The position numbers and the translations under genes are program-made. Source: Thiobacillus sp. 65-29 (lineage in GTDB: Bacteria; Pseudomonadota; Gammaproteobacteria; Burkholderiales; Thiobacillaceae). Taken from it: a stretch of 64,000 bases of DNA. The stretch is from assembly GCA_001899775.1 (NCBI GenBank), contig MKWN01000028.1, positions 15,612 through 79,611 on the forward strand. The letters run 5' to 3'. The notes beneath the pieces were generated by a model. That model was not told where the DNA came from, did no database searches, and saw nothing but the letters and a program-made list of their open reading frames with translations. Shown here one piece after another: positions 4,233 to 48,777 of this stretch (position 1 is the stretch's first letter; each line of letters starts with the position of its first letter).

Positions 4233-10165
<5,933 letters not shown>

Positions 10166-10235
10166 AGCCGGCGCGGGCGCCGGCGGGCCCGCCGAATCGC
10201 GGTATGCTGTGCGGTTTCCGTTCCGCACTGTGCGC

Positions 10236-11669
10236 ATGGCTGCCGGCCCCTACTATCCGCGCTCGTTCACCATCCTGGTCATCGTCGCCATGGGCGTGCT
10301 GATCGTGCCGCTCGCCAGTGGCCTCATCAACGTCGTACACGTGCTGCAGGGCGTGGTCGACACGCAGCGCCAGTTCGCCCGCGACAGCCTTGCGGTGACG
10401 CGTGACGTGCGCCAGGTGGGGGAATCGGTGAGCCAGTTGCAGCGCGCTGCGGGTCAGTATCACCTGCTGCGCGACGCCGAATTCGGCGAGGTCCTGGAGC
10501 GCGCCCATGCCACCCTGCACAGCCGCCTGGCGCAACTCGACACACCGCTCGGCGACGCCGCCGCGCGCGCGACACTGGCGCGCCTCGACCGCGCCAGCGC
10601 CGCGCTGTACCACACGGTGCGCCCCGGCGCCTTTCTCGACAGCGCGCGCTTTCATGCGCTGGAACCCGAATTCGCCACGCTGCATGGCGACGCACGCACG
10701 TTGCAGGAACAGGCCGACGCCGCCGTACAGCGCGACCAGCAGGCACTGGAAGCGACGGTGCAGTCCACCCGCCAGCGCCTGATCGGACTCGGCCTCGCGC
10801 TGGTGCCGCTGACGCTCCTGCTGGCGGCGGTGTTCTCCTGGCTCATCAACCGCCCCATCCGCCAGCTCAAGGCGGCGATCCAGCAGCTCGGCCAGGCCAA
10901 TCTCGCACCGCTGCCGGCGATCAGCGGACCGCAGGACATGGTCGAACTGGGGCGCGAAATCGACTGGCTGCGCCAGCGTCTGCAGGCGCTGGAAGCACAG
11001 AAAACACGCTTCCTGCGTCACGTCTCGCACGAACTGAAAACGCCGCTCGCCTCGCTGCGCGAAGGCGTCGCGCTTCTCAACGACGAGCTCGCCGGTCGCC
11101 TCAACGCGCGCCAGCGCGACATCGTCGCCATCATGGACCAGGGCAGCCGCGACCTGCAGCGACGCATCGAGGAACTCATCCGCTACGGCAGCATGGTGCG
11201 CGAACCGGTCCGTCCGGCGACCGCCGAGCAGCCCTTGGCGGACGTGGTGGACGGCGTGCTGGCGCGCCACCGGCTCGCCCTCGACGCGCGCCGCCTCACC
11301 GTCGACACGCAGCTCGACGCCGCCGCCGTGCGCGCGGATCGCGCGCAACTGGAAACCGCGCTGGACAATCTGTTGTCCAACGCGGTCCGCTTCAGCCCCG
11401 AGGGCGGGCGCATCCTGGTGAAGAGCGCGCCACAGGCGGGCACGGTCGCACTGTGGGTGTGCGACATGGGCCCGGGCATTCTTGTCGCCGAGCGCCATCG
11501 CGTGTTCGAGCCGTTTTTCCAGGGAAGCCACCAGCCTGCCAGCGCCGTCGAAGGCAGCGGCCTGGGGCTGTCGATCGTACGCGAAGCACAGCTCGCGGCC
11601 GGTGGCAGCGCCGAAGTCGTCGACTGCGCGCCGTGGTCGACCTGTTTTTGTTTAACCTGGCCCGTATAG
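10236..11669 (+). CDS. glrK: Sensor histidine kinase, GlrK/QseE-like
   Basis: Two TM segments, HAMP, FLRHVSHELKTPLASLREG H-box, NLLSNA, D-GPG and GSGLGL boxes. Confidence 0.8.
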   Translation: MAAGPYYPRSFTILVIVAMGVLIVPLASGLINVVHVLQGVVDTQRQFARDSLAVTRDVRQVGESVSQLQRAAGQYHLLRDAEFGEVLERAHATLHSRLAQLDTPLGDAAARATLARLDRASAALYHTVRPGAFLDSARFHALEPEFATLHGDARTLQEQADAAVQRDQQALEATVQSTRQRLIGLGLALVPLTLLLAAVFSWLINRPIRQLKAAIQQLGQANLAPLPAISGPQDMVELGREIDWLRQRLQALEAQKTRFLRHVSHELKTPLASLREGVALLNDELAGRLNARQRDIVAIMDQGSRDLQRRIEELIRYGSMVREPVRPATAEQPLADVVDGVLARHRLALDARRLTVDTQLDAAAVRADRAQLETALDNLLSNAVRFSPEGGRILVKSAPQAGTVALWVCDMGPGILVAERHRVFEPFFQGSHQPASAVEGSGLGLSIVREAQLAAGGSAEVVDCAPWSTCFCLTWPV

Positions 11670-11680
11670 CCGTTGTCCCG

Positions 11681-12151
11681 ATGAACCTGAAACCCGTCCT
11701 GCTTGCCGCCTGGCTGTCGATACTGGGCGCTTGCGCCCTGCCGCCGGACAAGCCGGTGCTGCCCGCGCTGGAGAGCGGGCTGGGGGTCTCTGCGGTATCC
11801 GCCGAGCTGGCGCGCGTCGCGGCGCTCACCCCCGAGCAGCGTCGGCGCGAACTCGCCGCGCTGGACGCCGAACGCCGTCTCGACGACGCCCGACGCTTCC
11901 AGCAGGCCGCCCTGCTCGAGCGCGAGGACGGCAGCGAGGCCCACGAACGCGCGCTGAAGAGCCTGGCCGCCATCGACGACGCAACCCCTCGCGCACGCGC
12001 GGTGATCGAGCTGATGAAGCGCACGCTGCGCGCGCGTATCGAGCTGCGCCAGCAGAGCGCGCAGGCACAGGTCTTGCAGGAGAAGCTCGATCAGATCAAG
12101 GCACTGGAAAAATCCCTGCAACAGCACAGCACACCGCCCCGTACACCATGA
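11681..12151 (+). CDS. Lipoprotein with coiled-coil C-terminus, QseG-like position between kinase and regulator
   Basis: Lipobox ILGAC; C-terminal LQEKLDQIKALEKSL; sits between the HK and RR genes. Confidence 0.72.
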   Translation: MNLKPVLLAAWLSILGACALPPDKPVLPALESGLGVSAVSAELARVAALTPEQRRRELAALDAERRLDDARRFQQAALLEREDGSEAHERALKSLAAIDDATPRARAVIELMKRTLRARIELRQQSAQAQVLQEKLDQIKALEKSLQQHSTPPRTP

Positions 12152-12170
12152 TCTCCCACCCACCTGCCGC

Positions 12171-13523
12171 ATGAAGAAACCGTCCATCCTGGTCGTCGAC
12201 GACGACGCGGCGCTGCGCGCGCTCATCACCCTGCGCCTGGAGGCGAACGGCTTTCGCGTCGACGCCGTCGACAGTGGCGAGGCGGCGCTCACGCAGCTCG
12301 CGCTCGCCCGTCCTGACGCGGTGCTGACCGACATGCAGATGCAGGGCATGGACGGCATGGCGCTGTTCCGCGCCATCCATGCGCGCGATCCGGCGCTGCC
12401 GGTGATCGTGCTGACCGCGCACGGCACCATTCCCGACGCGGTCGCAGCCACGCAGCAGGGCCTGTTCGGCTACCTCACCAAGCCCTACGACGCGCCCACC
12501 CTCGTCGACCTGCTGCGGCGCGCCACGCGCCTCGCCGGCAGCGCCCCCGACGCGGTCGACGACCAATGGCGCAGCGAGATCGTCACCGCCAGTCCGGCGA
12601 TGGAGACGCTGCTCGCCGAGGCGCGCCTGGCCGCGCAAAGCGGCGCTGCGCTCCTCATCCAGGGCGAGTCGGGTACCGGCAAGGAGCTGCTCGCGCGCGC
12701 CATCCACCGCGCCAGTCCGCGCTACGCGCACCCCTTCGTCGCGATCAACTGCGGCGCGATTCCGGCCGAGCTGCTCGAGTCCGAGCTGTTCGGCCACGTC
12801 AAGGGCGCCTTCACCGGCGCCGGACGCGACCACCCGGGCCTGTTCCAGAGCGCCGACGGCGGCACCGTGTTTCTCGACGAGGTCGGCGACATGCCGCTGC
12901 CGCTCCAGGTCAAGCTGCTGCGCGTGCTGCAGGAAGGCGAGGTGCGTCCGGTCGGCGCTACCGAGGCGCGCAGGGTGGACGTGCGCATCCTCTCCGCCAC
13001 CCACCGCGACCTCGACGAGGCGATCGCCGAAGGCCGCTTCCGCGAAGACCTGTATTACCGTCTCAACGTCGTCAACCTCACGCTGCCGCCGCTGCGCGCG
13101 CGACGCGAGGATATCCCGCTGCTGGCGCAACACTTCCTCGCCACGCTCGCCGCCCGCTACCAGCGGCGCATCCACGGTTTCGCCCCCGACGCCCTCGACA
13201 TGCTCGCCGCGGCGGACTGGCCGGGCAACATCCGTCAACTGCACAACGTGCTGGAGCAATGCGTCGCGCTGTGCCCGACCTCGACCATCCCCGCCGCGCT
13301 GGTGGCGCGCGCGCTGCGCGACAAGCCGGCGGAAATCCAGCCACTCGCCGAAGCGCGCGCCGCCTTCGAGCGCGACTATCTCGTCAGCCTGCTCAAGCTC
13401 ACCCGCGGCCAGGCCAGTGAAGTCGCCCGCCTCGCCGGGCGCAACCGCACCGAGGTCTATCGCCTGCTGCAGCGCCACGGGCTCGACCCCGCGCTGTTCC
13501 GCAGCCGCGACGACGCCGGCTGA
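12171..13523 (+). CDS. glrR: Sigma54-dependent response regulator, GlrR/QseF-like
   Basis: Receiver (VVDDD, LTDMQM), [32 protein letters not shown]-terminal [18 protein letters not shown] typical of GlrR. Confidence 0.85.
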
Positions 13524-13543
13524 GCGACACCGGCCGGGGTGGC

Positions 13544-13561
13544 TGTCGCCGACGGGCGACA
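13544..13561. promoter_or_regulatory. GlrR-type enhancer box 1 (TGTC-N10-GACA)
   Basis: TGTCgccgacgggcGACA, a perfect match to the known GlrR site consensus. Confidence 0.75.
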
Positions 13562-13575
13562 ATTTGTTTGCGATA

Positions 13576-13588
13576 AACCAATGACTTG
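13576..13588 (+). promoter_or_regulatory. IHF-like site between the enhancer boxes
   Basis: AACCAATGACTTG vs WATCAA-N4-TTR (1 mismatch), in an AT-rich patch. Confidence 0.5.
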
Positions 13589-13605
13589 CACGACGCCGGC
13601 GTATC

Positions 13606-13623
13606 TGTCGCCGGCGCGCGACA
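13606..13623. promoter_or_regulatory. GlrR-type enhancer box 2 (TGTC-N10-GACA)
   Basis: TGTCgccggcgcgcGACA, perfect match. Confidence 0.75.
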
Positions 13624-13676
13624 GAAATCCCCTACAGCCGGCCCCCACACCTGTCACCGCAACGACGGGGCCGCCG

Positions 13677-13689
13677 TAACTTGTTGTTT
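13677..13689 (-). promoter_or_regulatory. IHF-like site between enhancer and promoter
   Basis: Reverse strand AAACAACAAGTTA vs WATCAA-N4-TTR (1 mismatch). Confidence 0.5.
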
Positions 13690-13707
13690 GAATTAAACAA
13701 TACAAAG

Positions 13708-13724
13708 CTGGCACGGTTGTCGCT
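13708..13724 (+). promoter_or_regulatory. Sigma54 (-24/-12) promoter
   Basis: CTGGCACGGTTGTCGCT: TGGCACG with exact GG-N10-GC spacing, 57 bp before an ATG that has an AGGAG RBS. Confidence 0.8.
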
Positions 13725-13781
13725 CCATGCACTCCGGATGCCCACGCATCCGACTTCACTTGTCACAGGAGATACACCGAG

Positions 13782-14069
13782 ATGAAACCCGTTTCCCATC
13801 ACATCCGCAATCTGGCCCTGTTGTACGCGCTGGGCGCGTTTGCCGCCCCGGCAGCGCTTGCCGGTTCGCCCATGGCCGACTTCAAGGCCACCGACGTCAA
13901 CGGTGACGGCCGCATCAGCCTCGAGGAATTCCGGGCCGCCGGCGGGGCCGAGGCGGCCTTCGCGGAAGGCGACGCCAACGGCGACAAGGTGTTGAGCCGC
14001 GAGGAATTCATCCGCGCCGCCCTCGGCAGCGATCGCATGCAGGCCGGCGGCCCGAAGAAAGGTGAATGA
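13782..14069 (+). CDS. Secreted EF-hand calcium-binding protein
   Basis: Sec signal peptide (...AAPAALA); two EF-hand loops DVNGDGRISLEE and DANGDKVLSREE. Confidence 0.85.
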   Translation: MKPVSHHIRNLALLYALGAFAAPAALAGSPMADFKATDVNGDGRISLEEFRAAGGAEAAFAEGDANGDKVLSREEFIRAALGSDRMQAGGPKKGE

Positions 14070-14070
14070 G

Positions 14071-14334
14071 ATGCGCGAAAGGAATGATGCCGATGCGTTC
14101 ACCGCATCGCGGCGCGCCACCCTGGGCACGCTCGCGGTGCTCGCCGGCCTGCTGACGCTTTACGGCTGCGACAACGCCGGGCCCGTCGACCAGGCGGCGG
14201 AACAGGCCGCGCAGCAGGTACAGGACAACGCCGTCGAGCGGGTCGACGGCACGGCAGCCGGGCCGGATCCGGCGGCAAACCAGCCGGAATCGGCTCCAGT
14301 CGGGACGGAGAAGGAGGATCCGCAAAAGCCGTAA
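14071..14334 (+). CDS. Small putative lipoprotein with low-complexity A/Q/P/E-rich tail
   Basis: SRRATLGTLAVLAGLLTLYGC lipobox; start at ATG 14071 or GTG 14062, coupled to the EF-hand gene stop. Confidence 0.65.
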   Translation: MRERNDADAFTASRRATLGTLAVLAGLLTLYGCDNAGPVDQAAEQAAQQVQDNAVERVDGTAAGPDPAANQPESAPVGTEKEDPQKP

Positions 14335-14345
14335 CCGGACGCAGG

Positions 14346-14377
14346 AGGCCGGGCCCCCATCCTCCCCCGGTCTTTTG
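14346..14377 (+). terminator. Probable intrinsic terminator after the EF-hand/lipoprotein operon
   Basis: Stem AGGCCGGG/CCCGGTCT followed by a short T run; between convergent genes. Confidence 0.45.
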
Positions 14378-14389
14378 CGTGCCGTCCGC

Positions 14390-15547
14390 TCAGAAGCGGT
14401 GGCTGACCATCAACTGCCAGTTGAGCTGGCTGTGGTCGATGACCATGCCGCCATTCATCGCTCCCGTCCCCGTCACCGAGTTCTCCGGCGCGTAGCTGAG
14501 CGCGAAGTTGACTTGCGAGCGCCCGCCGAAGGTGTAGCCAAAACCCGCCGTATAGTGATGTTCGACCGTTGCCGGCCACAGATAATTGACGAATTCGTCC
14601 GGAATCGGATTCTTGCCGTAGTTGTAGCCGATGCGCCCGGTAAGCGCGCCAGTGAATTTCCACGCAAGGCCGGCGGACACGACGACCTGGTTGTCCCAGT
14701 CCTGCTGGAATGGCGCCAGCGTCATGCCGTTCTGCAGAATGGTCACGGTGTTCATGCTGTCGCCCCACAGCACATCCTTCAGATCGGCGGCGACCAGCAA
14801 GCGCTCGCTCGCCTGCCAGGCGAAGCCGAGTCCGACCATGGCGGGCATGTCGAAGCCGGTCACCTTGTAGCCGGCGCCCTTGAGATCGGGCAGGTTGCCG
14901 GCGCTCTGGTAGACGCCGCCGAGGGTGAGCGCGTCGTTGAGCCGGTAGGTGAAGCCGAGCTTGGCGGCAAGGCTGTAGCCCTTGGCACGGCCGGTGAAAT
15001 CGCTGTCGTCCTTGAAGTCGATGTCCTTGCTGCCATTGCCATCGAGATCGGCGACCAGGTCCATGCCCGCCCACACGAGGTCGACGCTGCCGCCGATCGT
15101 GAGGCGCGCATTGGCGCGCCAGGCGAGCGGGAAGATGACGCGGCCGACGCCGACCTGGGCCATGTCGCCGCTGGCGTACTCGGTGCCCATGCCGCCCTGG
15201 CCGTAGATGCCGGCGCCCCAGGCGAAGTCACCCTGTTTCGCCACGTAGCCGAACGCCGGCATGTAGAACGCGTCCGCGCTGGAGTCGCCGAAGGTGCCGG
15301 GCGCCGACACGTCGGGCCCGACGTAGCCCAGCATCACGTCGACGCGGTGGCCGTCGGCCATCAGCCCGAGCGTGGCGGGGTTGTTCGCCAGCGCGGCACT
15401 GCCGTTGTCGTACGCCAGCGCCGCGCCGCCCATGCCGGTGGCAATGGGGCCGTAGCCTTCCATGATCATGCCGTTGGTGGCGGCGGCAAGGCCGGGCAGA
15501 CAGGCGCCCACCGCAATCAGGGCGGCGGCGAGTTTCATGGTGCGCAT
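14390..15547 (-). CDS. OmpP1/FadL-family outer-membrane channel for hydrophobic substrates
   Basis: Signal peptide; N-terminal plug NGMIMEGYGPIATGMGGA...NNPATL; C-terminal aromatic F (VSHRF). Confidence 0.85.
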   Translation of the reverse strand: MRTMKLAAALIAVGACLPGLAAATNGMIMEGYGPIATGMGGAALAYDNGSAALANNPATLGLMADGHRVDVMLGYVGPDVSAPGTFGDSSADAFYMPAFGYVAKQGDFAWGAGIYGQGGMGTEYASGDMAQVGVGRVIFPLAWRANARLTIGGSVDLVWAGMDLVADLDGNGSKDIDFKDDSDFTGRAKGYSLAAKLGFTYRLNDALTLGGVYQSAGNLPDLKGAGYKVTGFDMPAMVGLGFAWQASERLLVAADLKDVLWGDSMNTVTILQNGMTLAPFQQDWDNQVVVSAGLAWKFTGALTGRIGYNYGKNPIPDEFVNYLWPATVEHHYTAGFGYTFGGRSQVNFALSYAPENSVTGTGAMNGGMVIDHSQLNWQLMVSHRF

Positions 15548-15675
15548 CGGGTTCTCCGGGGGGACGGCAAAAAGAAAAGGCCGCCGATTCTAGCCGAAGT
15601 CGGGTTCGAATCGCGGCGCGGCGGCATGAATGATCGGCGATTTTCGGCGAAACCTTGGGCCTGCCCGGCAGGCCC

Positions 15676-15715
15676 CTGTTACACACTGTTACACGCTGTT
15701 GCACAGGCTACACAT
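15676..15715 (+). promoter_or_regulatory. Four phased 10-bp direct repeats, candidate OmpR/PhoB-family binding array
   Basis: CTGTTACACA CTGTTACACG CTGTTGCACA GGCTACACAT. Confidence 0.55.
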
Positions 15716-15796
15716 CCCGCTCACACGGCGTCGCTACATTACAACCGTCGCCAGCGCACCACGTGTCCGACCCTCCGGCAAGAAAAGGAACAACCC

Positions 15797-16216
15797 ATGC
15801 AAGCCAGATCGATCAAGCAGACCCTGATCCACATCGCCGCCGCCGTCGGCCTCGCCGCGACCGGCGCGCAGGCCGACTGGTACCGTGGCGACGGCAACGC
15901 CTTCGCGCCGGCGCAGGCGCTGAAGCAGAGCCAGCAATTCAGCCAGCAGATCGACGCCCGCCAGGCTTGGCAGCAGGCCCGCATCGAAGCGGGCCTGCGC
16001 AGCGGCGAACTCACCCTGCAAGAATTCCATGCCCTCGCGCGCCAGCAGCACGGCATCGCCGCGATGAAACGCCAATTCCTTGCCGACGGCCGCCTCGACG
16101 TCCACGAATTCCGCCACCTCGACGCAACGCTGGATGCGGCCAGCCGCGCCATCCGCGCCGAAAAGTATGACGCGCAGGCACGCGGGTACCGCGACTACCA
16201 TCCGCGCTACAACTGA
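15797..16216 (+). CDS. Secreted helical hypothetical protein
   Basis: AAAGGAA RBS; signal peptide ending GAQA; motif IEAGLRSGELT..E...L....ADGRL. Confidence 0.75.
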   Translation: MQARSIKQTLIHIAAAVGLAATGAQADWYRGDGNAFAPAQALKQSQQFSQQIDARQAWQQARIEAGLRSGELTLQEFHALARQQHGIAAMKRQFLADGRLDVHEFRHLDATLDAASRAIRAEKYDAQARGYRDYHPRYN

Positions 16217-16301
16217 ACTGCGCGAAACGCTACAGTTGCGGCGGGTGCAGCCGTTACTTGATTGATTATTCAATTGGTTATTCACCCGGGAACTCTACGA
16301 C

Positions 16302-16847
16302 ATGAAACACGCCCTCGCCCTTGCCCTCGCCGCAGGCCTCGCCGCGCCGGTCTTCGCCGACCCGCCGCAGCATGCACCGGCGCACGGGTATTACAAGGAA
16401 AAGAACAAGGCGAAGCACCGCCACCACGGCCGCAGCGGCGCGGTGTACGTGGCCGACTACGGCGTTTCGTCCGGGCGCTGCAACCGCGACGAAATCGGCG
16501 CGGTGATCGGCGGTGTCACGGGCGCAGTGATCGGCGGACAGGTGGCCGGACGCGAGGACCGCGTGGTCGGCATGGTGGTCGGCGGCGTGCTCGGCGCAGT
16601 GCTCGGTCACGCCGTCGGCGACAGCATGGACGACCGCGACCGTGCCTGCATGGGCCATGCGCTCGAACTCGGCCGGCCCGGCGTGCCGGTGGTGTGGAAC
16701 GGCGGTGGCCACCGCTACGACTTCACCCCGCGCGGCGACGCCCGCGACGGCTGCCGCTATGCCACGCTGGCGGTCGACGGCCGCAAGCCCAGGGAGGTGC
16801 TGGCCTGCCCGAGCGGGCGCGGCGAATGGAGTTTCCGCCGCATGTGA
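16302..16847 (+). CDS. Glycine-zipper (17 kDa surface antigen-like) secreted protein with His/Lys-rich N-terminus
   Basis: Signal peptide, [24 protein letters not shown] / GGVLGAVLG glycine zippers, MDDRDRAC. Confidence 0.78.
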
Positions 16848-16929
16848 ATCCGGGACGGCACGGGGCGGGCAGGCGCCAGGCCTGCTAGAATCGGGGCTTT
16901 GCATCCGCGCCCCGCAAGGGCTCCGTGCC

Positions 16930-17994
16930 ATGTCCACCCTGAAAAACGACACCTTCCTGCGCGCCCTGCTGCGCCAGCCGACCGATTACACGCCGCTGTG
17001 GCTGATGCGCCAGGCGGGACGCTACCTGCCGGAGTACAACGCCACGCGTGCGCGCGCCGGCGACTTTCTCACCCTGTGCAAGACCCCCGACCTCGCCACC
17101 GAGGTCACGCTGCAACCGCTCGCCCGCTATCCGCTCGACGCCGCGATCCTGTTTTCCGACATTCTCACCGTGCCCGACGCGATGGGTCTGGGGCTGTATT
17201 TCTCGCAGGGCGAGGGGCCGCGCTTCGAGCGCCCGCTGCGCGACGAATGGGAAATCCGCGACCTCACGGCGCCCGATCCCACCGACAAGCTCGGCTACGT
17301 GATGGACGCGGTGCGCTCGATCCGCCGCGCGCTCGACGGCGCGGTGCCGCTCATCGGCTTCGCCGGCAGCCCCTACACCCTGGCGTGCTACATGATCGAA
17401 GGCGGCAGCTCGGACGATTACCGCCATATCAAGACCATGCTGTACGGTCGCCCCGATCTGCTGCACCGCATCCTCGACGTCACCGCGCACGCGGTGACCG
17501 ATTACCTCAACGCGCAGATCGAGGCGGGCGCGCAGGCGGTGATGATTTTCGACTCCTGGGGCGGCAGCCTCACGCCCCACGCCTACCGCGAGTTCTCGCT
17601 CGCCTACATGGAAAGAATCGTCGCCGGCCTCATCCGCGAGCGCGAAGGCCGCGTCGTGCCGAGCATCATCTTCACCAAGGGCGGCGGCAACTGGCTGGAG
17701 GCCATGGCGGGTATCGGCGCGGACGCCGTCGGTCTGGACTGGACCGTCGACATCGGTGAGGCGCGCCGTCGCGTCGGCGACCGCGTCGCCCTGCAGGGCA
17801 ACCTCGATCCCTGCACCCTGCACGGCACGCCGGAGATCATCCGCGCCGAGGCCGAGCGCATCATCGACAGCTATGGCAACCACCCCGGCCACGTCTTCAA
17901 TCTCGGCCACGGCATTTCGCAGTTCACCGACCCCGACAAGGTCACCGTGCTGGTGGACACCGTTCACCGTCACAGCCGGGCGCTGCGCGCCTGA
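16930..17994 (+). CDS. hemE: Uroporphyrinogen decarboxylase
   Basis: [30 protein letters not shown]. Confidence 0.97.

Positions 17995-47235: not shown

Positions 47236-48777
<1,542 letters not shown>

Follow-up and report, generated by a model that had tools for sequence, protein, structure and literature searches.

The window, a 64,000-nt stretch of contig MKWN01000028.1 from Thiobacillus sp. 65-29, carries a kinase-lipoprotein-regulator operon that is followed by a regulatory region and a two-gene unit (Table 1). The kinase has the GlrK-like layout of two transmembrane segments, a periplasmic part and a HAMP-HisKA-HATPase module, and is 40% identical to Escherichia coli GlrK over 293 residues covering HAMP and the kinase core (E 2e-63). 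Its periplasmic part gave no alignment with E. coli GlrK when the sequences were compared and, as the two domains are unrelated in sequence, the signal may differ. The 156-residue lipoprotein encoded next had no match in a Pfam search and resembles E. coli QseG only marginally, below significance (E 0.026); at 42 of 67 class-level loci, a crude search found a lipobox in the ORF that runs up to the start of the regulator gene, at least four of these being glmS false matches.

Table 1. Features of the locus, in window coordinates.
Feature	Position	Strand	Details
GlrK/QseE-like sensor histidine kinase	10236..11669	+	Pfam HAMP, HisKA, HATPase_c
156-aa lipoprotein in the QseG position	11681..12151	+	Signal peptide and lipobox LGAC; helical C-terminal part
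GlrR/QseF-like sigma-54-dependent response regulator	12171..13523	+	Pfam Response_reg, Sigma54_activat, AAA_lid
Candidate GlrR box 1, TGTCGCCGACGGGCGACA (TGTCGCC-N4-GGCGACA)	13544..13561		PWM 22.7 bits
IHF-like site 1, AACCAATGACTTG	13576..13588		Between the boxes; one mismatch to WATCAANNNNTTR
Candidate GlrR box 2, TGTCGCCGGCGCGCGACA (TGTCGCC-N4-CGCGACA)	13606..13623		PWM 21.5 bits
AT-rich tract/IHF-like site 2	13677..13700		Just 5' of the promoter
Predicted sigma-54 promoter, TGGCACGgttgTCGCT (TGGCACG-N4-TCGCT)	13709..13724	+	PWM 18.9 bits
Inverted repeat/5' leader hairpin, CGGATGC-CCAC-GCATCCG	13735..13752	+	Folding
Secreted two-EF-hand protein, 95 aa	13782..14069	+	Pfam EF-hand_1/5/6/7; signal peptide ending ALA|G
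Small lipoprotein, second gene of the target operon	14071..14334	+	Lipobox LYGC, Asp at +2
Intrinsic terminator hairpin and U-tract	14336..14384		-30.2 kcal/mol, z -3.36

Over its full length the regulator shares 55% identity with E. coli GlrR, its recognition helix is near-identical to E. coli GlrR's RNRTEFYKLLSRH, and its best NCBIfam model is GlrR, followed by NtrC (433 bits); its GlrR score stays below the equivalog cut-off (582 bits against 763), which counts against it. This bears out its assignment as a GlrR/QseF orthologue in a kinase-lipoprotein-regulator operon, whose gene order is that of qseEGF. The genome further encodes rpoN and an IHF-alpha homologue.

The main elements that the original prediction had placed between and around these genes (both boxes, the IHF-like sites, the promoter, ribosome-binding site, ORFs and terminator) were all found at their positions. 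The boxes equal the experimentally defined GlrR site, TGTCN10GACA, which acts with IHF and sigma-54 at glmY (PMC3045617), and lie 165 and 103 nt upstream of T13709, with which the TGGCAC -24 element begins; the IHF consensus quoted in the same study is WATCARXXXXTTR. In the promoter, GG lies at 13710-13711 and GC at 13722-13723, placing the predicted +1 near 13735, while the -12 element reads TCGC rather than TTGC, which counts against it. The proposed glmY-type architecture thus holds for the boxes, the IHF-like sites and the sigma-54 promoter, but not for the number of three boxes: across 13 orthologous promoters, the stretch with the degenerate third one (13652-13667, N8 spacing) is the sole part of the spacer to lack conservation, and only two boxes are kept. 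The window holds four TGTC-N10-GACA sites where 0.77 are expected, and the 48 sites in the 2.9-Mb genome form close pairs at just two places, both upstream of strong -24/-12 promoters, so that chance is a poor explanation.

The predicted leader of the downstream operon, about 47 nt long, leads over a GGAG ribosome-binding site to the ATG at 13782 and contains a hairpin with a stem of seven pairs, which 13 leaders from the genus retain, two of the pairs having changed on both sides. The EF-hand protein has two loops, DVNGDGRISLEE and DANGDKVLSREE, 13 residues apart; its family aligns without gaps, with D38, G43, E49, D64 and E75 invariant, the core of its AlphaFold model has a pLDDT of 82-92, and a PDB structure search returned EF-hand folds only. 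Homologues of the small lipoprotein lie downstream of the EF-hand gene in four genus relatives (L002, with 51% identity, L004, L008 and L014), and in L002 the operon is followed by the same terminator hairpin, which in the window is common to the operon and a convergent FadL-like gene.

Evidence at the RNA level comes from assembled metatranscriptome contigs, not raw reads, of a strain about 98% identical; three of the informative runs belong to one study. Contigs covering just the two-gene unit (13769-14335 and 13776-14318) form a discrete RNA unit; 13608-13739 has no assembled coverage in either of the runs that gave them, and in X25 and X30 contigs stop at 14335-14339. At 13749, downstream of the -12 element, the depth jumps from 4.9 to 35.8. 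In X25, X33 and X37 a single contig spans glrR, the boxes and the operon, and read-through or DNA carry-over is therefore possible; strain polymorphisms at 13755 and 13758 could lie behind some of the contig breaks. With RNA contigs across both ORFs, a leader of this length and no GlmY in the genome, the predicted output, an exported EF-hand protein plus a lipoprotein instead of an sRNA, is supported.

The original prediction had named conservation of the boxes in orthologous loci as its own touchstone, and conserved they are. Among 14 genus promoters, the spacer shows islands of conservation at box 1 (-165/-166), the IHF core, box 2 (-102/-103), the AT tract and the promoter, and nowhere else: the IHF core CAA-N4-TTG is nearly invariant amid variable sequence, a TTGATTT...AAAA block is kept while the preceding 50 nt vary freely, and the promoter is invariant as CTGGCA.G....T.GC. 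The target gene follows the regulator as well. In the genus sample (G001-G015), all 11 regulator-bearing genomes have the EF-hand gene, with the best match on the same contig and within about 1 kb in the nine for which the place of the regulator is listed; the four genomes without the regulator gave no strong EF-hand match. Directly after glrR, most genus relatives encode a protein of the DUF1328 family and a fusion of EF-hand and BON; a search of the window's own genome found neither DUF1328 nor BON.

A genome scan for further TGTC-N10-GACA and sigma-54 pairs yielded a second locus of the same build on another contig (C53), upstream of a bactofilin gene, with boxes at -168 and -92 and the promoter at 47739. 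This locus and the EF-hand operon are the only two genome-wide where the boxes and the -24/-12 promoter are both strong, scoring 17-19 bits for the promoter and 14-23 for the boxes, against at most 12 and 13, respectively, elsewhere in the PWM scan, which found no rpoE-linked site in this genome. Of 16 orthologous loci, 13 keep the bactofilin promoter with its boxes at -170 and -92; bactofilin and regulator are both present in 12 cases in the genus, both absent in four and mixed in two, and in Thauera, Methyloversatilis and other Rhodocyclaceae bactofilin is the divergent neighbour of glrK. Contrary to what had been proposed, the circuit is thus not self-contained, nor is it unique.

Beyond the genus, boxes, promoter and regulator are linked in dozens of families, with such box and sigma-54 promoters at 83 of 148 GlrR loci from other families. 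Their outputs include opgGH (OPG, osmoregulated periplasmic glucan), EF-hand proteins, BON/OsmY-like proteins, bactofilins, DUF1328, glycine-zipper and Pal-like proteins, small membrane proteins and possible sRNAs, and the regulon is accordingly best read as a homeostasis response of the envelope, periplasm and outer membrane alike. At least 14 of 68 class-level loci combine the same wiring with a homologous EF-hand output, as do Ca. Thiodiazotropha and Methylophilaceae, and a one-motif relative is present in Wenzhouxiangella. EF-hand, BON, OPG and other envelope outputs represent the common state in non-enteric lineages, and GlmY was found in none of the sampled genomes, this one included. 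"Rewired" is therefore an overstatement, and it may be the sRNA output of enterobacteria that is derived. Given the wiring in many families and the second local target, the window locus represents a further instance of a widespread GlrKR envelope regulon, of which we found no description in the literature searched.

Other readings of the region have to be weighed. The palindromes could be purely structural, as a glrR terminator or REP-like hairpin, with the operon served by read-through or an unrecognised sigma-70-type promoter and the -24/-12 element unused. Box 1 with its T-rich tail does score as an intrinsic terminator, and may double as the glrR terminator stem, and the contigs continuous from glrR into the operon would fit as well. 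However, most genus relatives have about 400 nt between glrR and the boxes, including a DUF1328 gene with its own terminator, and still the distances to the promoter stay at -165 and -103; the half-sites TGTCGC/GCGACA are conserved and the centres of the boxes variable, as is typical of protein-binding sites rather than stems; the same pair is found again upstream of bactofilin, with no glrR nearby; a promoter scan of 13400-14500 found nothing sigma-70-like; and RNA depth goes up past the -12 element. We consider this reading very improbable.

We regard it as very improbable that one of the other enhancer-binding proteins activates the promoter and that the adjacency of glrR is coincidental. 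The genome does encode nine proteins with a Sigma54_activat domain, but the GlrR-type recognition helix is found only in the adjacent regulator, whose C-terminal 45 residues the other eight match at E 0.01 or worse; moreover, the boxes equal the proven GlrR site, their linkage to promoter and regulator is kept across families, and the target genes are lost together with the regulator. A similar consensus is cited for PpsR of Rhodobacter, and the sites could also be operators of a PpsR/CrtJ-type repressor, which recognises such a palindrome in purple bacteria; yet they stand at enhancer distance from a sigma-54 promoter without overlapping a sigma-70 promoter, and the genome has no PpsR/CrtJ (best match 39.6 bits, cut-off 275), which effectively refutes this reading.

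We therefore consider it highly likely that the locus encodes a three-component GlrK(QseE)-lipoprotein-GlrR(QseF) envelope sensor along with one of the two promoters that it targets locally. From the elements, their conservation, the gene co-occurrence and the RNA unit, all directly observed, we infer the following course. Once phosphorylated, the regulator would bind both boxes as dimers, IHF would bend the DNA at the CAA-N4-TTG site and the AT tract, and the AAA+ domain of the regulator would open the sigma-54 closed complex at TGGCACG-N4-TCGCT. The transcript would start near 13735 with the hairpin, encode both proteins and end at the 14336-14384 hairpin; the EF-hand protein would be exported via Sec, the lipoprotein is probably anchored in the inner membrane, and the same regulator most likely drives the bactofilin gene too. 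The EF-hand protein may serve as a periplasmic effector or co-sensor that binds divalent cations. That the circuit itself responds to calcium, as was suggested, finds no support, Ca2+-type binding loops being present in the output protein only. The operon points to what the poorly understood GlrK-type sensor controls outside gut bacteria.

The closest known systems are the glmY and, in Yersinia and Salmonella, glmZ promoters of Enterobacteriaceae, which are governed by GlrK(QseE)-QseG-GlrR(QseF), sigma-54 and IHF (PMC3045617, PMC6075780). Shared with these are the orthologous regulator with its recognition helix, TGTC-N10-GACA sites that stand over 100 bp upstream of a -24/-12 promoter, IHF-like sites in the intervening DNA, and the adjoining kinase-lipoprotein-regulator operon. 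In contrast to them, the window system yields a bicistronic mRNA for exported proteins instead of an sRNA, has two conserved boxes and not three, lies downstream of glrR and not upstream of glrK, has no overlapping sigma-70 promoter, and its kinase periplasmic domain and lipoprotein do not recognisably resemble those of GlrK and QseG. A sigma-54 promoter of rpoE in E. coli K-12, activated by QseF according to PMC6075780, shows that GlrR/QseF can drive protein-coding envelope-stress genes and not only sRNAs. Its target is a cytoplasmic sigma factor, in contrast to the periplasmic EF-hand protein, lipoprotein and bactofilin targeted in the window system.

The side-by-side BON and DUF1328 families after glrR in most genus relatives recall E. 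coli osmY-ytjA, where the gene for a BON-domain periplasmic protein precedes that for a DUF1328 membrane protein. E. coli osmY is osmotically induced and RpoS-dependent, and is not known as a GlrR target.

Compared by description, the EF-hand protein resembles Pseudomonas aeruginosa EfhP, with two EF hands, a predicted periplasmic location and a Kd of 13.7 uM for Ca2+ (PMC9132961), and CaBP, a periplasmic exported EF-hand protein of Caulobacter (PMC13171946), in being a small Sec-exported protein with canonical 12-residue EF loops. The available text of these two sources reports no GlrR or sigma-54 link, and the inter-loop spacing of the window family, fixed at 13 residues, is unusually short. 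A short spacing, together with small size and periplasmic location, is shared with lanmodulin (LanM; PDB 6MI5, 8FNS, 8DQ2), and by hit-table coordinates lanmodulins are the noted PDB matches that align over both loops without a long inter-loop insertion. The match to the NCBIfam LanM model is weak (E 7e-7, 29 bits against a cut-off of 135), and the window protein has two EF hands, not four. Lanmodulin loops often have Pro as their second residue, where those of the window protein have Val or Ala.

We found the kinase-lipoprotein-regulator operon and the promoter region behind it to be built as the original prediction described, with all main elements present in the 258-nt spacer 3' of glrR, but instead of the one-off rewiring that had been proposed they represent one instance of a widespread predicted envelope regulon of GlrKR orthologues. 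The gene order of kinase, lipobox ORF and regulator is that of the annotated glmY-glrK-qseG-glrR locus of E. coli K-12, which served for comparison. The regulator has the REC, sigma-54 AAA+ and C-terminal HTH architecture, is 55% identical to E. coli GlrR over its full length (443 aa, E 9e-169) and carries a recognition helix almost identical to that of E. coli GlrR, RNRTEFYKLLSRH. Against NCBIfam, GlrR is its top model with 582 bits and NtrC the second with 433; it misses the GlrR equivalog cut-off (582 vs 763 bits), and the sequences used to train that model are enterobacterial. The kinase is 40% identical to E. coli GlrK across HAMP and the kinase core, and its periplasmic part gave no alignment to the E. 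coli protein. For the 156-aa lipoprotein in the QseG position, a Pfam search at E 0.1 returned no match and the BLASTP match to E. coli QseG is marginal (E 0.026, 32% over 98 aa). The genome encodes one copy of rpoN and nine enhancer-binding proteins, only one of which has the GlrR-type DNA-binding helix, as well as an IHF-alpha homologue at 70% identity, found with a query that only approximated E. coli IhfA and shows the existence of a homologue alone.

Features of the regulatory operon, the EF-hand operon and the bactofilin locus. Positions are those of the window, except for C53, another contig of the same genome; distances are relative to the initial T of the TGGCAC -24 element (T13709 in the window).
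Feature	Position	Sequence	Distance	Remarks
Sensor kinase gene	10236-11669			Co-oriented with the next two genes, 3' of gltBD; HAMP, HisKA and HATPase domains
156-aa lipoprotein gene	11681-12151	LGAC		Co-oriented; lipobox at residues 15-18
Sigma-54-dependent response regulator gene	12171-13523			Pfam Response_reg, Sigma54_activat and AAA_lid_14, whole length
Box 1	13544-61	TGTCGCCGACGGGCGACA	-165	
IHF-like site	13576-88	AACCAATGACTTG		
Box 2	13606-23	TGTCGCCGGCGCGCGACA	-103	
AT-rich tract	13677-13700			
Sigma-54 promoter	13709-24	TGGCACGgttgTCGCT		
RBS		GGAG		Followed by ATG at 13782
Secreted EF-hand protein gene	13782-14069			First gene of the EF-hand operon
Small lipoprotein gene	14071-14334			Second gene; within the genus, the +2 position following the lipobox Cys is a conserved Asp
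Strong hairpin and U-tract	14336-84			End of the unit, directly 3' of the small lipoprotein gene's stop codon
Bactofilin locus	C53:47571-48397 (1241-2067 of locus L182)	Promoter TGGCACGgcggTTGCG	Boxes -168 and -92	

The spacer thus described combines a -24/-12 promoter with GlrR-type boxes more than 100 bp upstream and with a conserved IHF-like CAA-N4-TTG core and AT tract. For GlrR, the binding site established by experiment is TGTCN10GACA, which at glmY works together with IHF and sigma-54 (PMC3045617). From the presence and conservation of the sites, we predict that the regulator binds the TGTC-N10-GACA boxes and activates sigma-54 transcription. Four such sites occur in the window against 0.77 expected, and the 48 in the whole genome (2.9 Mb) include only two close pairs, each of them 5' of a strong -24/-12 promoter. 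From related loci we derived position weight matrices (PWMs) of the boxes and of the promoter. In a genome scan with these, only two of the seven matches were credible, those of the EF-hand and the bactofilin loci, with promoter scores of 17-19 bits and box scores of 14-23 bits; elsewhere in the genome the two scores never rise together above about 12 (promoter) and 13 (box) bits. The search for more pairs of boxes and sigma-54 promoters, which the original prediction had suggested, yielded one further copy in the genome, at the bactofilin gene, and weaker matches that look like noise. This second promoter of the same build, predicted to drive a gene on another contig, is at odds with the notion of a self-contained circuit.

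Orthologues of the regulator, 81-90% identical, are present in most of 24 genomes of the same genus, where the conservation of the boxes in orthologous loci, the lack of which would have refuted the original prediction by its own terms, is borne out. An alignment of 14 promoters shows conserved islands at box 1, the CAA-N4-TTG core, box 2, an AT/TTGATTT tract and the promoter; in the genus, the boxes of the EF-hand promoter lie at -165/-166 and -102/-103 and the promoter reads CTGGCACGGTCGTCGCT. The third box that had been proposed, at 13652-67 and with N8 spacing, falls into 50 nt that vary freely in this alignment, and we discarded it, leaving two of the three. In the majority layout, glrR is followed by a DUF1328 unit, a terminator, the two-box promoter and then the EF-hand gene. 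The DUF1328 unit (L002-L020 and L030, ~100-400 nt 3' of glrR) has its own sigma-54 promoter with a single box at -92 and encodes a 55-aa YtjA-like membrane protein. This gene is missing in the genome studied here and in three relatives, so that their EF-hand promoter adjoins glrR; in the genome of the window, tblastn at E 1e-3 detected neither DUF1328 nor BON genes, and no paralogues of the EF-hand gene were found. The secreted EF-hand protein of the genus often carries a C-terminal BON fusion and sometimes occurs in two tandem copies, and the small lipoprotein gene is kept 3' of it. In E. coli, osmY, which encodes a BON protein, adjoins ytjA, which encodes a DUF1328 protein.

The presence of the EF-hand gene follows that of the regulator. 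It was found in all 11 sampled genus genomes with a regulator (from the set G001-G015), and in the nine for which the place of the regulator is listed, the best EF-hand match always lies on the same contig, within ~1 kb of it; four genus genomes without the regulator gave no strong EF-hand match. The same holds for the bactofilin gene, with both genes present in 12 genomes, both absent in four and two mixed cases, one of which is an incomplete genome and the other a truncated gene. In the genome of the window this gene is monocistronic, between genes for a sugar-nucleotide epimerase and metK, and its product matches Pfam PF04519 (DUF583) over 97 of 98 profile positions (2.9e-17). In 13 of 16 orthologous bactofilin loci the promoter is likewise preceded by two boxes, at -170 and -92.

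Could the palindromes have another function, or the promoter another product? Box 1 together with the following ATTTGTTTG (13544-13570) also fits an intrinsic terminator of glrR, with a 7-bp stem and a 4-nt loop, and may have a dual role as box and terminator. Across related loci, the half-sites of the boxes are kept and their centres vary, as is typical of a site bound by a protein and not of an RNA stem. PpsR/CrtJ, considered as an alternative binder of these palindromes, was ruled out because its gene is not in the genome. As to the product, a GlmY/GlmZ-family sRNA does not come from this promoter: the leader had been judged too short for one, and indeed an RBS and an ORF follow after ~47 nt, no Rfam family is found at 9000-17000, and the best hit of the GlmY model in the whole genome scores 17.9 bits, below the cut-off of 33, with a positive E. 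coli control. The promoter also differs from the glmY type in having only two conserved boxes in place of three activator sites. What the leader does contain is an inverted repeat, GA(G/A)TGC-N4-GCATTC (13735-13752, ~+1 to +18 if transcription starts as predicted), which is kept in 13 genus promoters, shows modest covariation (two of seven pairs) and may act as an RNA hairpin at the 5' end or as an operator.

Assembled RNA contigs agree with a transcript of both genes, with its start a short way 3' of the -12 element (+1 predicted near 13735) and its end at the hairpin. The stretch is present in many sludge metatranscriptomes, and its habitat is activated sludge, bioreactors and biocathodes; the contigs come from a ~98%-identical strain, and three of the informative runs from one study. 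In run X30, a 567-nt contig covers exactly 13769-14335, and in run X31 another spans 13776-14318, with no assembled coverage across 13608-13739 in either; in run X29, a contig begins at 13749, right after adapter sequence, with the depth rising from 4.9 to 35.8; and in run X25, a contig ends at 14339. Polymorphisms at 13755/13758 may account for some of these breaks, and in other runs contigs are unbroken from glrR on. Contigs at the bactofilin promoter start 60-100 nt below the predicted start, with none over the enhancer, and are weakly informative. A convergent gene for a FadL/TodX-family outer-membrane channel (14390-15547, minus strand) shares the terminator region of the EF-hand operon and lies on the same contig as the operon in several runs.

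Beyond the genus, a sample of 300 genomes spread evenly over the GTDB class contained orthologues of the regulator (E < 1e-120) in 69, and none of the 65 genomes checked for GlmY had it, with E. coli again positive as a control. In addition, the pattern RNRT[ED]FY[KR]L matched more than 600 stretches in a collection of species representatives, from which 80 named loci were kept; by the C-terminal DNA-binding part of the regulator, the nearest named relatives are Thauera and Methyloversatilis. By a crude search, 42 of 67 loci have a lipobox in the ORF that ends where the regulator gene begins; at least four of these are false matches to glmS. The PWM scan detected box-plus-promoter modules beside the operon in 26 of 68 class-level and 57 of 80 named loci. 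Among the genes 3' of 87 such promoters, opgG/opgH, for periplasmic glucan synthesis, come up most often in this sample (22 cases), ahead of genes for EF-hand proteins (13, with a BON fusion in two), bactofilins (7) and BON proteins (6), the remainder being partly Pal/OmpA-like, glycine-zipper and small membrane proteins, with 30 unclassified; a direct search showed 14 of the 68 class-level loci to carry ORFs for homologous two-EF-hand proteins. The module 3' of glrR leads to opgG/opgH in Comamonadaceae-type genomes (Polaromonas, Hydrogenophaga, Variovorax, Aquabacterium and Alicycliphilus; opgG/opgH loci include L034, L052, L068, L119, L132, L143, L148, L151, L152, L160, L165, L176 and L179), and in named Thauera, Methyloversatilis and other Rhodocyclaceae a bactofilin gene divergent to glrK has the boxes and the sigma-54 promoter. 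At six loci (L039, L048, L057, L059, L061 and L081), the module lies 3' of glrR and is followed by 85-330 nt without an ORF, an intrinsic terminator and ybgC-tolQ; these stretches have no Rfam match and are possible candidates for GlrR-dependent sRNAs outside enterobacteria. In four gammaproteobacterial loci (L085, L086, L090 and L098), a GlrR-like gene lies directly 3' of glmS, without a kinase or lipoprotein gene between them, and no box-promoter module was detected near it.

The sRNA output of enterobacteria looks like the exception among GlrKR orthologues. QseE/QseF (GlrK/GlrR) has a role in envelope homeostasis and virulence of enterobacteria, and the physiological stimulus to which it responds in E. 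coli K-12 is, according to PMC6075780, still unknown. In a broader reading, which we offer as speculation and consider rather unlikely, GlrK-QseG-GlrR would be an ancient outer-envelope sensor of divalent-cation load or of osmotic or periplasmic integrity, with periplasmic effectors (short-spaced two-EF-hand and BON proteins, periplasmic glucans, small membrane proteins) and a bactofilin that adjusts wall growth as ancestral outputs; the EF-hand protein would be both an output and a metal-dependent co-sensor feeding back on kinase and lipoprotein, and GlmY/GlmZ a late replacement. If true, this would point to a candidate class of signal for QseE/QseF. Independently of it, a recognisable, conserved promoter module reveals predicted targets of the orthologous system in many environmental Beta- and Gammaproteobacteria, leads to concrete hypotheses on envelope or divalent-cation homeostasis and lends itself to simple reporters for the signal, for which E. 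coli K-12 is suited across species, as it shares both recognition helix and DNA site. It also assigns a regulatory context to small exported two-EF-hand proteins, to DUF1328 (YtjA-like) proteins and to the bactofilin clade of Rhodocyclaceae and relatives, all of them, to our knowledge, poorly understood. The direct targets of QseF/GlrR named in the literature that we examined are glmY, glmZ and rpoE, and full-text searches returned no paper tying GlrR/QseF to EF-hand, osmoregulated periplasmic glucan or bactofilin genes.

The products of the EF-hand operon can be compared with known proteins. The small lipoprotein has the Asp that, by the E. coli sorting rule, means retention in the inner membrane; the copy in the window alone also has a stretch, SRRATL, that resembles a Tat motif. 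The EF-hand protein (95 aa) has a Sec-type signal peptide ending ALA|G and matches Pfam EF-hand_1 in two stretches (7e-11), with canonical 12-residue loops DVNGDGRISLEE and DANGDKVLSREE of the pattern D-x-[DN]-x-[DN]-G-x-[ILV]-x-x-x-E, position 6 of the second being K, and a gap of merely 13 residues between them; it aligns gaplessly with 15 homologues from other loci. In its AlphaFold model, the core has pLDDT values of 82-92 and EF-hand-type helices; Foldseek returned EF-hand folds only, none reaching E 0.001 because the domain is small, and a profile search of PDB sequences returned ordinary EF-hand proteins. Calcium as the signal, which the original prediction had raised, finds no support in these data; the link to Ca2+ lies in the loop type of the output protein. 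Ca2+ binding is known from other exported EF-hand proteins, such as EfhP with a Kd of 13.7 uM (PMC9132961). Lanmodulin was considered as an identity and rejected, since the LanM model scores 29.3 bits against a cut-off of 135; judged by hit-table coordinates, both loops do align with those of lanmodulins without a long inter-loop insertion, but lanmodulin has four EF hands and the protein described here two.
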